Below the pieces are notes generated by a model. That model was given only the letters and a program-made list of their open reading frames with translations, had not been told where the DNA came from and searched no databases. A stretch of 64,000 nucleotides of DNA, taken from positions 97,266 to 161,265 of the IMG/VR virus record IMGVR_UViG_3300030419_004857; one strand, given 5' to 3'. The translations under genes were made by a program, and so were the position numbers. Positions 24,969-63,822 of the stretch are shown piece by piece. This DNA is from a virus. Positions within the stretch are counted from its first letter, which is position 1; every line of letters begins with the position of its first letter.

Positions 24969-25242
24969 AACCGCGCTTCATTAAATCTTCATACCAATCA
25001 ATCGTAACGCCTTGAATAAAAGGCTCACTCCTTTTATCCACTACTATTCCTATACCCGCTTGTGAATACATGCTATCATTGTTAACTGAATATTCTGATT
25101 CTTCTATAAAGCCCATGTTATATTCAAATCCAGAACATCCTCCACCAACGACACTAACCCGAAGCAACCTATTGGTTGCCTCGGGCGTGTCGTTCATGAG
25201 TTTTTTTAATTCTTTAACTGCTGCTTCAGTTAAAGTTATCAT
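24907..25242 (-). CDS. iscA: HesB/IscA Fe-S cluster assembly protein
   Basis: GGGCSGFEY and NPNATGGCGCGKSF. Confidence 0.92.
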   Translation of the reverse strand: MITLTEAAVKELKKLMNDTPEATNRLLRVSVVGGGCSGFEYNMGFIEESEYSVNNDSMYSQAGIGIVVDKRSEPFIQGVTIDWYEDLMKRGFVFENPNATGGCGCGKSFSV

Positions 25243-26477
25243 AGAATGACCTTTGCATCACTCTCTACGAAGTATCTTGGACGACCAGCAAAGTCAATCT
25301 TCTGAGTTTGAGGATCAATTCCAAGATGAGCAAACAAAGTAGCAGTAACATCCTTTGGGCCAAATGGGTCGCTCTTTGGAGTTTCCACCTTGGAAGTGGA
25401 TTCTCCAATTACCCTGCCCATATCGAAGTCCCCACCGCTGAACATAAGAGGACTAAGCTGGGGCCAGTGATCCCTACCACCATTTTTGTTAACACGGTAG
25501 GTTCGACCAAACTCTCCTGTCACAACTAGCAACACATCCTTGCTCATACCCCTGTCCTCTAGGTCATCAATAAAGGTGGACAAAGCGTGGTCAAGTGGCG
25601 GCATTCTTCCATCAAGAGACTTAGCGATATTGCTATGCATGTCCCAGCCTCCATAATGGAGCGTAACAAACCTAGTTCCATTTTCAACTAGGCGTCGGGC
25701 TAGAAGCATTTGTTCTCCCAATCCCTTGCCGTATCTATTACGGTTTGCTTCTGGTTCTTTTTTGAGATCAAAAGCCTCGCTAGCCTTGCCTAGAATTAGG
25801 CCATAAGACTGCTTACGCAAATCCGGCCAGATTTCAAGGTCGTTCTCAATCTTCAACCTATCCAGCCCACCGATAAGATCTCGCCTTTGAAGGAAGCGGT
25901 TGTTCTCCACTCTGGACTGAAGGTTTTTCACGCCTTCTCCACTTGCTTCGTATGGCTTATACTGACCACCAAGCCAAGCGGGTCCGTCAAAAGTGATACC
26001 ATTGATCTTTACATAGCTTGGCATACCATTAATAGGATGGTTTGTTCCGTACATAGAAGATACAATAGAACCATATGAAGGTTCGGTCTGCATTGACTGT
26101 GGGGTATTATCAGTTGAGTTATGACCAGTCATTACCCAATGAGTGCCAGTTCTGTGACTAGAATTTCTGTGAGCAAATGATCTAACAATAGCAATCTTAT
26201 CTGACCTAGTAGCCAGCTTGAGGAAGTTGCCACCAAGCAAGAAATCTCCCTTGGTCATAATTGCCCCATTGGTAGACCGCACTCCAACTGGAGCAGAGGG
26301 CTTGGGGTCAAAAGTTTCAATATGAGTTGCGCCCCCACCTAGCCACAACCAAACTACTGACTTTTCACCAGTAGGAAGATTGGCCGCATTAGCATCTGTT
26401 AGACCTACAGAAGAAAGAGCGGCGCTAATTCCTCCAACTTTCATAAAATCGCGTCTATTGAATTGAACATTAAACAT
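25239..26477 (-). CDS. DUF1501 domain protein with Tat signal
   Basis: NRRDFMK, WLGGGATHIETFDPKP, LARRLVENG, GWDMH, GEFGRT, GRDHW. Confidence 0.9.
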   Translation of the reverse strand: MFNVQFNRRDFMKVGGISAALSSVGLTDANAANLPTGEKSVVWLWLGGGATHIETFDPKPSAPVGVRSTNGAIMTKGDFLLGGNFLKLATRSDKIAIVRSFAHRNSSHRTGTHWVMTGHNSTDNTPQSMQTEPSYGSIVSSMYGTNHPINGMPSYVKINGITFDGPAWLGGQYKPYEASGEGVKNLQSRVENNRFLQRRDLIGGLDRLKIENDLEIWPDLRKQSYGLILGKASEAFDLKKEPEANRNRYGKGLGEQMLLARRLVENGTRFVTLHYGGWDMHSNIAKSLDGRMPPLDHALSTFIDDLEDRGMSKDVLLVVTGEFGRTYRVNKNGGRDHWPQLSPLMFSGGDFDMGRVIGESTSKVETPKSDPFGPKDVTATLFAHLGIDPQTQKIDFAGRPRYFVESDAKVIL

Positions 26478-40871: not shown

Positions 40872-40888
40872 TTTTAATTCCTTTAAAG

Positions 40889-41228
40889 TGGAGGCGGCGG
40901 GAATCGAACCCGCGTCCTGTATAGTTTCCACAACAGCTTCTACATGGTTAGTTTATTGTATTCGCACAACAAACAAGGCTAGCCTGATAAGTTCGGTTGG
41001 TATGCTCAGACGGCCCATATCCAACCTAGAGTGTATTATTAAGGAAACACACTAAAACCTTTTTTGGTCTGATTGGTTAATAAGGCTCAGACCGACCCCA
41101 AGCTACACTAGGCAGCTAACGCATACTGCTTTTCGGCAGTTACTTTTTGGTCAGCTTTTATAGTGGCCAACTGACCAACCACTCCATGCAACTATTACTT
41201 CTGCTACCAGTCGAAACCAATCGCCCCC
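40889..41228 (-). ncRNA. ssrA: tmRNA, tag (A)AEKQYALAA at 41137-41108
   Basis: 5' GGGGGCGA...GGTTTCGAC; 3' GGACGCGGGTTCGATTCCCGCCGCCTCCA with G3-U70; resume context TAACT-GCC; tag ends ALAA-stop. Confidence 0.93.
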
Positions 41229-61186: not shown

Positions 61187-61325
61187 ATTATAGTATATTA
61201 TCGTCCAATGTCAACACCGATCTTGAGGTTTTCTCGATTTATTTTCTGACTCACTGGCACGGGGGTTGCTTCTCTTCGAGCGGCGAGCTTGTGGAAAGAC
61301 AAGCTCGCCGCGCAGTTTTACCCCA
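61187..61325 (-). repeat. early promoter/hairpin cassette, copy D
   Basis: same boxes; 13-bp stem GCGGCGAGCTTGT/ACAAGCTCGCCGC. Confidence 0.75.
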
Positions 61326-61331
61326 TCCAAT

Positions 61332-61366
61332 AAAAAACCCCCGCACCGGCGAACCGGAACGGGGGC
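61332..61366 (-). terminator. rho-independent terminator
   Basis: CCCCCG...CCGG-TTCG-CCGG...CGGGGG plus T6. Confidence 0.8.
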
Positions 61367-61411
61367 CAGCGACTGAGGAAAGGGCGAAACTCCAAGCCGC
61401 TGTATGTAATA

Positions 61412-61586
61412 TGGGTGGGCGGGACTTACAATATTACCCGCATCTTTTCGGGGTTGGATATGGCAACGGGTTTGACCCGCTTCCCTACTTCCGAACCACT
61501 TCGCACAGCCTCACCCAGTCGGGCCTACTCTGTGCTTGGTGTGCGTTACCGTCTCCAACTGGCTCCGGTTATTCCGCCACCACCCT
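61412..61586 (-). ncRNA. expanded tRNA-like RNA (class II/Leu-like scaffold)
   Basis: GGGTGG/CCACCC acceptor, TGGCGGAAT...AACGC D-arm, GCGGG/CCCGC T-stem; arms enlarged by hairpins. Confidence 0.6.
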
Positions 61587-61604
61587 AAACGGGGAGCTAC
61601 CCCG

Positions 61605-61781
61605 CTACTTAGTTTCCTCCAATGTCACTTTGATCTTCTGAGGTGCGTTCTTGCCGAGAATGTACTTCTGGATGTAGATGGTATTGACCACTGGGGCCAC
61701 CCCCTCATCCGGCGTCTCGCTATATCGCACCGTGTTCTTGGTTTCCTTTTCCAGTTCAAACGTCGCGGTTGTCGTCTTCAT
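61605..61781 (-). CDS. small hypothetical protein (58 aa, not in track)
   Basis: MKTTTATFELEKETKNTVRYSE...TIYIQK...PQKIKVTLE. Confidence 0.6.
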   Translation of the reverse strand: MKTTTATFELEKETKNTVRYSETPDEGVAPVVNTIYIQKYILGKNAPQKIKVTLEETK

Positions 61782-62299: not shown

Positions 62300-62327
62300 A
62301 TTATACCACAGGTGCTGTGGTTGTCAA
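62300..62327 (-). promoter_or_regulatory. sigma70-type promoter
   Basis: TTGACA-N16-TATAAT. Confidence 0.75.
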
Positions 62328-62330
62328 GCC

Positions 62331-62534
62331 CTAATAACAGCCTTCGCTTTCCCCGTGCCAGATTTCGTCAGCGATTGCGAGGGCGTCGTCCTCGTCCTCG
62401 ACATCCGCCACGCATTCGTAAACGAAGTCTTCCGGGCCATCCGCCACGGGTCGCCACACCTCAAACACCCCACCGTATCGGGGGCAGTAGACAACCTGAA
62501 TGCCATCAATCTCGTAAACCACTTCGCCGTGCAT
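62331..62534 (-). CDS. acidic hypothetical protein, paralog of 63502..63822
   Basis: DGIQVV..P.Y...EVW...CVAD shared. Confidence 0.65.
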   Translation of the reverse strand: MHGEVVYEIDGIQVVYCPRYGGVFEVWRPVADGPEDFVYECVADVEDEDDALAIADEIWHGESEGCY

Positions 62535-62566
62535 CTCGTTCTCCCTTTCGTTTGCGTTACTCCCCC

Positions 62567-62720
62567 ATTATAGTATATTATCGGCATATGTCAAGGCCAC
62601 TCTCCACTAAATCCGGCACTTTCTCAAAAAAATCCGCTGGCTGGCACACAAGCCGACCCCGCGACATCAAGCGGCGCGGTTGTCCAAAGACACCGCGCCG
62701 TCCCGTTTCACCCGAACCGG
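62567..62720 (-). repeat. early promoter/hairpin cassette, copy E
   Basis: same boxes; 62641-62669 matches 58282-58310 at 26/29 nt. Confidence 0.75.
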
Positions 62721-62892: not shown

Positions 62893-63075
62893 TCTATAGC
62901 AGGTGGCAAGCCTTTCCACTTTTCACCCTTCACGCTAGAAGGCTTTGACTGGGCTGCTATATGTAAGGTACTAGCCCTATTTATCTCCACCCCTTCTCGG
63001 GGTTTGTAGGCGTGGCTAGATTTACGGCTGTGCCGCTCTGACGCCTCGTTGTTCACTGGTATACACCAGCTACAT
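62893..63075 (-). ncRNA. unknown structured RNA between tRNA-like genes
   Basis: nested helices TATAGCAG/CTGCTATA, AAGCCTT/AAGGCTT, CTAGCC/GGCTAG, ACCCC/GGGGT, CTGGT/ACCAG. Confidence 0.45.
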
Positions 63076-63083
63076 AAAAGTGC

Positions 63084-63229
63084 TGCCCCCGGAGGGATTC
63101 GAACCAAACGCCGCCGGGACGTTTACGGGGTGAAAAAGTGTGTACACACTTACCGGTATCTGTACTGGACACCGGCCCGCCACGATTCTACGGCTTACAG
63201 CCGCGCTCATGCCACCGAGCTACAAGGGC
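63084..63229 (-). ncRNA. tRNA-like RNA (GUA loop) with structured insertion of about 75 nt
   Basis: GCCCTTG/CGGGGGC acceptor, GCTC/GAGC D-stem, GCGG-CTGTAAG-CCGT, GGTTCGAATCC. Confidence 0.6.
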
Positions 63230-63501: not shown

Positions 63502-63822
63502 CTAAAAGTCAATTCCACTTTCGAAATAATCAGGGAACAGCGAGGTTGCCGAGTCAACGTCGAGAGGCGGCATCTCAGTCGAACCCGATTCCCCCGTCTC
63601 ACGCAGCTTTGCGATATGGATATCTTTGGCCTCGTCAATCGCCTCCTGCTGGTCGGGCGTGTCTGCCACACAATCCCAGAGGACGGCTTCCCCGTCTTGC
63701 TCAACCCGCTGCCACACTTCGTAAACAGCGTACTTCGGAGACCAGACCACTTGAATTCCGTCGACCATCCATACCACGTCGCTTGTCATTGTTCTTCCTT
63801 CGTTGTGTTGTATGTTCCCCAT
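63502..63822 (-). CDS. acidic hypothetical protein (start probably 63789)
   Basis: RBS GAAGGA; paralog of 62331..62534. Confidence 0.65.
   Translation of the reverse strand: MGNIQHNEGRTMTSDVVWMVDGIQVVWSPKYAVYEVWQRVEQDGEAVLWDCVADTPDQQEAIDEAKDIHIAKLRETGESGSTEMPPLDVDSATSLFPDYFESGIDF

Follow-up and report, generated by a model that had tools for sequence, protein, structure and literature searches.

Background

The manA RNAs have had no known function since 2010; they were described in potential 5′ UTRs, and a cis-regulatory role was the original hypothesis (PMC2864571). RNA-only cages have recently been reported for the family: octamers, decamers and a 60-mer form via L5-L7′, L8-L9′ or L3-L8′, and L1-L1′ contacts, and the variant manA_6FAB, which has no P4-P7 junction, forms octamers and decamers (10.64898/2026.07.01.735769). 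For manA, all evidence of cages comes from that one preprint and from in vitro work at ~ 3 mg/mL. ROOL and GOLLD, two other phage-associated RNAs of unknown function, also form RNA-only cages; they differ from the RNA described here in being several hundred nucleotides long and unrelated in sequence, and an Rfam search of the present RNA matched neither of them.

The RNA in question lies in a 64-kb stretch of viral DNA (hereafter the window) that forms the end of an IMG/VR record 161 kb long. A single copy was found in this genome.

Boundaries, fold and conservation

The whole element occupies positions 61412–61605 on the minus strand (~ 194 nt), from a 5′ hairpin, P1, through a discriminator-like A. 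Its ends were placed by conservation (Rfam match, alignment A1 and model R1, described below) rather than by RNA data. An earlier sequence-only reading of the window had given the extent as 61412–61586, which held for the 3′ part but set the start ~ 20 nt too late, leaving out the hairpin at 61605–61589.

Homologues were retrieved with the pattern TGGC-N-GAATAA...TAA-N-GCACA, in which two positions were left free. This produced 91 distinct sequences, with the free letters able to pair in 79 of them and a further inner stem present in 76. Narrower patterns yielded close homologues, 35 of which make up alignment A1; those contigs with readable names were marine. Across A1, 99% of cells were paired, and 25 of 49 base pairs displayed changes on both sides, compared with 12.5 ± 1.7 in shuffled controls and at most 7 in slid controls. 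The fold is taken as proven on account of this covariation among 35 homologues, and not of its folding energy, which was modestly better than chance (z = − 2.2). The element is almost certainly a real, selected, structured non-coding RNA, as judged from these comparisons; homologue covariation was also one of the checks that the sequence-only reading had named. Other searches were less productive: BLAST against cultured phages returned chance matches of 23–25 nt and nothing else, and one pattern run against GTDB genomes gave three matches, none with the fold, although that pattern would miss differently lettered members (e.g. in Photobacterium). Initial patterns keyed to the T arm or to P1 produced nothing beyond chance matches, and a looser pattern gave mostly noise, with three canonical manA RNAs among its matches.

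The P1 hairpin (61589–61605) carries a palindromic loop, UAGCU (61599–61595); this hairpin and the stop codon of the ORF ahead of it overlap. P1 is followed by the acceptor-like 5′ strand of P2 (61580–61585), which forms 6 bp with 61418–61413 and is 100% paired, two of its pairs being compensatory. The 3′ end (61412–61418) comprises the other P2 strand and an invariant A73 with no encoded CCA; the letters after the 6-bp stem are A and then UAU. P3 (61542–61579) contains the core of a tRNA D arm, in which G18G19 are replaced by a hairpin, P3b (ACCG/CGGT). An arm at 61497–61541, P4, stands in place of the anticodon arm and consists of P4a, P4b, a purine-rich internal loop and P7; the P7 hairpin bears a GACU loop, and there is no P5/P6 junction, as in manA_6FAB. 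P8 (61450–61485) takes the position of a variable arm, and the T arm is represented by U48 plus P9 (61419–61442), with G53-C61, U54·A58, U60 and an enlarged 13-nt loop without TTC.

Most of these arms had already been recognised from the letters of the window, and homologues bear out the acceptor-like GGGTGG/CCACCC plus A (61585–61580/61418–61412), the Leu-type D-arm signature with its ACCG/CGGT insert, the GCACAG/CTGTGC stem capped by GCCC-GACT-GGGT, and the T-stem GCGGG/CCCGC with its 13-nt loop. For the variable arm, the proposed inner stem GCGGG/CCCGT stood, and the proposed outer stem TCGG/CCGA was rejected, being paired in only 46% of cases; the outer P8 stem retained here is GGG/CCC, 100% paired among the 35 homologues. 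Absent from the earlier description was a 6-bp pseudoknot joining loop L3 (GUUGGA, 61559–61554) to the 3′ bulge of P8 (UCCAAC, 61458–61453), which is 99.5% paired and has five of its six pairs changing on both sides.

Relationship to manA

At the gathering level, Rfam returned no match for the element. Below that level, the manA model (RF01745) aligned over its full length to 61409–61606 with 24.9 bits (E = 0.0037; cut-off 55.2), which places the element outside the curated family and means that it is not undescribed, as had been supposed. The gap is bridged by homologues with manA scores of 33.5, 35.8, 41.1, 55.4, 69.2, 77.9 and 119.8 bits. In the reverse direction, model R1, built from the 35 homologues of the close clade only, matched a homologue scoring 69.2 bits in Rfam (L217, E = 7.5e-8) and a canonical manA RNA scoring 119.8 bits (L092, E = 3e-4), each along its full length, as well as two further members (L135, E = 7.5e-15; L182, E = 4e-5), all these E-values being rough. 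In a comparison by eye, L217 was nearly identical to the published manA_6FAB, for which it served as a stand-in; identity of the window RNA to L217 is ~ 44%. Collectively, the full-length Rfam match, the continuum of scores and the R1 matches make the window RNA very probably a divergent member of the manA type, beyond the curated cut-off and in a 6FAB-like branch without P5/P6. Members lacking P5/P6 are already present in the original manA alignment.

Shared with manA and 6FAB are the helix order P1-P2-P3a/b-P4-P7-P8-P9, the pseudoknot of L3 with the P8 bulge, a GAAUAA/UAA module, the P1 loop UAGCU, the P7 loop GACU and a marine phage origin. Most manA members have a four-way junction P4-P5-P6-P7, which is absent in both 6FAB and the window RNA, where P4 leads through the internal loop to P7. 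The window RNA differs in its longer L3, its 6-bp pseudoknot and 6-bp P2, and in an L9 that pairs with the P8 bulge rather than with L8, weakly in this copy. It also precedes a terminator instead of lying in a 5′ UTR, and it comes from a probable Planctomycetota phage, so that this branch would extend the family to such phages.

A core resembling class II tRNA

Under a mapping in which P2 is the acceptor, P3 the D arm, P4 the anticodon arm, P8 the variable arm and P9 the T arm, the window RNA reads U8 G9 G10 C11 G12 G13 A14 A15, A21 A22 C23 G24 C25 A26, U48, G53 U54, A58 G59 U60 C61 and A73, with the D-arm pairs G10-C25, C11-G24, G12-C23 and G13·A22. Reference profiles were made from phage tRNAs matching none of the search patterns (91 of class I and 7 tRNA-Leu of class II). 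The 22 core positions scored 21.5 bits on the class I profile and 28.7 bits on the class II Leu profile (reference n = 7), where real tRNA-Leu averaged 24.7 bits and none of 300,000 random draws, made with forced stems, exceeded 17.7. Positions fixed by no pattern (48, 53, 54, 58–61 and 73) gave P ~ 2e-4. These values come from a mapping made post hoc and, for class II, from a small reference set of seven. Spacing is tRNA-like too: 2 nt precede the D-stem and 1 nt follows it, the T-stem is stacked on the acceptor strand, and a 2-nt bulge comes after A58. Canonical manA members keep most of the core positions, with acceptors of 4–6 bp in most.

Class II bacterial tRNA-Leu/Ser (RF00005) therefore has in common with the window RNA the cloverleaf, the long variable arm, a 3-bp D-stem with G13·A22, and U8, G9, A14, A15-U48, A21, A26, G53-C61, U54·A58, U60 and A73. 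Unlike these tRNAs, the window RNA has no 7-nt anticodon loop with U33, G18G19, TTC loop, 7-bp acceptor or CCA, and it adds a 5′ hairpin and a pseudoknot, reaching about 195 nt. The Rfam tRNA model did not match it at E 10, and ARAGORN called no tRNA at the element, lowered thresholds included. A tRNA-derived core nevertheless appears likely from this comparison, in agreement with the tRNA-Leu-like character that the sequence-only reading had ascribed to the RNA. No paper linking manA to a tRNA fold was found in a search that left most subscription journals outside, and the word tRNA is absent from the cage preprint and its supplement (10.64898/2026.07.01.735769).

A search for a class II D arm combined with a normal T loop returned ~ 45 distinct phage RNAs (L344–L395) with odd anticodon domains. 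ARAGORN calls ~ 8 of these tRNA-chassis RNAs tRNA; the rest carry unrelated inserts at the anticodon position, often with a GGAAGGT/ACCTTCC acceptor. They share with the window RNA the class II D-arm letters, often a GGAAGG/CCTTCC acceptor, and a remodelled anticodon domain; GGAAGG is the commonest acceptor strand both in the close homologues (20/35) and in the tRNA-chassis RNAs (11/45). Unlike the window RNA, they have a 7-bp acceptor, D-loop GG and a canonical T loop, pass the Rfam tRNA cut-off, and have neither P1 nor the pseudoknot. R1 found no match at their loci. They look like a half-way stage between tRNA and manA.

Predicted contacts between molecules

N90, which immediately precedes the 4-bp stem of P7, and N97, third in the tetraloop, are Watson-Crick complementary in 93 of 94 homologues (T-A in 49, G-C in 27, C-G in 17). 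On the tree this pair changes 11 times, and after clustering at 70% identity it is complementary in 18 of 19 clusters. The pair next to it is either A-U or G·U. Since P7 itself covaries, and both helices are impossible within one strand (zero-length links), we infer that the N90-N97 contact forms between molecules. In the window RNA (61517–61526), A61526/G61525 of one molecule would pair with C61518/U61517 in the P7 loop of another, and L217 carries identical contact letters (AG with CU). This 2-bp contact on the P7 side probably joins molecules head to tail, in place of L5-L7′, and the analysis thereby names a specific base pair (G61525/C61518) for mutation.

The P1 loop is UAGCU in 27 of 35 close homologues, and its central GC is present in all 35. 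Among the members checked, the loop was self-complementary or GACG in 19 of 20 (6.9 expected); counted as distinct loops, this was 9 of 10 (3.2 expected). It is a candidate for a self-kiss matching the L1-L1′ contact of the preprint. Together, the trans pair and the palindromic P1 loop point to self-assembly, and it seems reasonably likely from these patterns that the RNA assembles into rings or cages. Most close homologues can pair L9 to the P8 bulge (84% of cells), but this pairing is lost in six and has a U·U mismatch in the window RNA; this contact being weak here, particle size is uncertain, and assembly could stop at rings or dimers. An L8-L9 kiss as in A0F1 was tried and rejected, there being no own-versus-cross gain in the close clade (2.74 vs 2.81).

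Genomic context

The window encodes a 2908-aa protein, a tmRNA, three tRNAs and a DUF1501 gene (25239–26477, minus strand, E = 7e-73), which is of host type. DUF1501 is typical of Planctomycetota and points to them as hosts; the virus is a probable Planctomycetota phage. The tmRNA (40886–41228, minus strand) has the tag AEKQYALAA; in two phages with homologues (L140, L234) a tmRNA lies within ~ 2 kb of the manA-type RNA, one being scored as permuted.

The element sits in a GC-richer region that we read as the early one and that is rich in perfect TTGACA-16-TATAAT promoters (26, against 8 in shuffled controls). Repeated hairpins with GTYYTACCY boxes occur upstream of early promoters (56275, 58347, 60034 and 61315, plus strand; genome 700–6700). 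One perfect sigma-70-type promoter (62300–62327, minus strand) is the likely source of a transcript running through three small ORFs (62265–61605) and on into the RNA, and a further promoter lies upstream at 62594. The last codon of a 58-aa ORF, its stop, marks where the RNA begins. Paralogous small ORFs at 62331–62587 and 63502–63822 (minus strand) have near-identical promoters; the one that was searched had no match in Pfam or PHROG. About 70 nt downstream of the element is a predicted intrinsic terminator (61333–61367, minus strand), a consensus match consisting of a GC hairpin and a U run, and behind it the next downstream gene has its own perfect promoter (61187–61214, minus strand). The three upstream ORFs and the terminator had both been noted before. 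Between RNA and terminator lies a small hairpin (61366–61402, minus strand), whose GAGTTT..CCCTTT core recurs downstream of the RNA in several homologues (L238, L267 and L279).

Among the 35 close homologues, a hairpin-U terminator follows within 115 nt in 17, a tRNA-Ile is next in 4, an ORF starts within 40 nt in 3, and most others have a U run after the RNA. Roughly half of them start at or within ~ 12 nt of a stop codon. The adjoining ORFs (27 on each side) fell into 10 unrelated clusters upstream and 16 downstream. A terminator combined with varying neighbour genes indicates a free-standing RNA gene and not a cis-regulator. At one locus (L262) the ORF 3′ of the RNA resembles, by eye, a small heat-shock protein, echoing the ibpA association reported for manA.

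Proposed model and alternative explanations

We propose, with a probability of roughly 0.68, that the element is a free-standing phage manA-type RNA built on a class II tRNA core, made early and capable of self-assembly. Comparison demonstrates the fold, the pseudoknot, the manA kinship, the tRNA-core nucleotides and the independence from neighbouring genes. The sigma-70 promoters at 62594 and 62327 would drive early transcription of a short operon whose 3′ end is the RNA, and the RNA would then persist as a stable species. The tRNA core would fix the arm angles; copies may link head to tail, internal loop to the neighbour's P7 loop, by the 2-bp contact, and rings may pair via the palindromic P1 loop into closed 8–10-mers, as reported for manA_6FAB.

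The tRNA likeness itself could be convergence or coincidence, manA having no tRNA ancestry. The tRNA model misses the element at E 10, R1 misses the tRNA-chassis loci, and the cryo-EM preprint makes no mention of tRNA (10.64898/2026.07.01.735769). We nonetheless find this doubtful, as the core score equals that of real tRNA-Leu, the same positions recur in canonical manA, the spacing is tRNA-like and GGAAGG is the commonest acceptor strand in both groups. If the likeness is instead taken at face value, the RNA might act as a monomer that LeuRS, tRNA-processing enzymes or anticodon nucleases take as a decoy or substrate, and the sequence-only reading had offered such a decoy for nucleases or synthetases. 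LeuRS charging needs G18-U55, G19-C56, A73 and U8-A14, and the anticodon arm is dispensable (PMC2377443). A73, U8-A14 and A15-U48 are kept, which belong to the leucine identity set, the altered anticodon arm would be no obstacle to charging (PMC2377443), and ACC follows the stem in 7 of ~ 20 broader members. However, the required elbow pairs G18-U55 and G19-C56 are missing (PMC2377443), which makes a chargeable mimic unlikely; the G18G19/TTC elbow is gone, the acceptor has 6 bp (4–6 in most relatives) and no CCA, no anticodon loop is left for an anticodon nuclease, and the kept 5′ hairpin adjoins the acceptor while the conserved loops are self-complementary instead. These points speak against the decoy idea, and a monomeric mimic of any kind is unlikely.

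Both remaining alternatives tie the RNA to a neighbouring gene. A complex fold with a pseudoknot, the potential 5′ UTR locations of manA (PMC2864571) and the three of 35 homologues with an ORF start within 40 nt would suit a riboswitch or other cis-regulatory element for the downstream gene, but with a terminator 70 nt downstream, a next gene that has its own perfect promoter, downstream ORFs in 16 unrelated clusters among 27 and a tRNA-Ile next in four homologues, this is very improbable for the present RNA, and the branch argues against the 5′-UTR/riboswitch idea for manA. Conversely, the RNA could serve as a 3′ stability or processing element on an early mRNA, an exonuclease shield whose self-assembly is incidental. 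Consistent with this, about every second close homologue starts at a stop codon or no more than ~ 12 nt from one, and the RNA ends in a U run or terminator; yet the genes ahead of it belong to 10 unrelated clusters, ORFs in such compact genomes adjoin tRNA genes as well, and neither the trans pair nor the palindromic loop requires an mRNA role. We regard it as quite unlikely.

The self-assembling manA-type reading also accommodates the scaffold option of the sequence-only reading. As to what an assembled RNA would do, our tentative guess is that early in infection it would resist nucleases and serve as a multivalent scaffold or sponge for host proteins involved in defence or RNA binding. With somewhat more assurance, we lean towards an origin of the whole manA family from a class II tRNA whose core was kept and whose anticodon, D-loop and T-loop were swapped for self-pairing loops, the chassis RNAs standing half-way and the present branch assembling by the 2-bp contact of internal loop and tetraloop. 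If manA is a remodelled tRNA, the path by which a tRNA became a self-assembling particle could be traced through it.

The element at 63084–63229

An RNA at 63084–63229 (minus strand), which the sequence-only reading had suggested might form one class with the manA-type RNA, has D-loop GG, a large variable region folded into two hairpins, and a normal T loop. R1 gives no match to it, membership of the same class was rejected, and it is a separate tRNA-derived RNA of another family as judged from these features. In its relatives L260, L264 and L317, the hairpin at the anticodon position is 42 nt longer. The start of the contig (1–154) is a 92% copy of window positions 63010–63163, which indicates diverged terminal repeats or a merged assembly. 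Several of the phage tRNA-Leu(UAA) genes at the L141, L157 and L280 loci are short and of class I, without the long variable arm.
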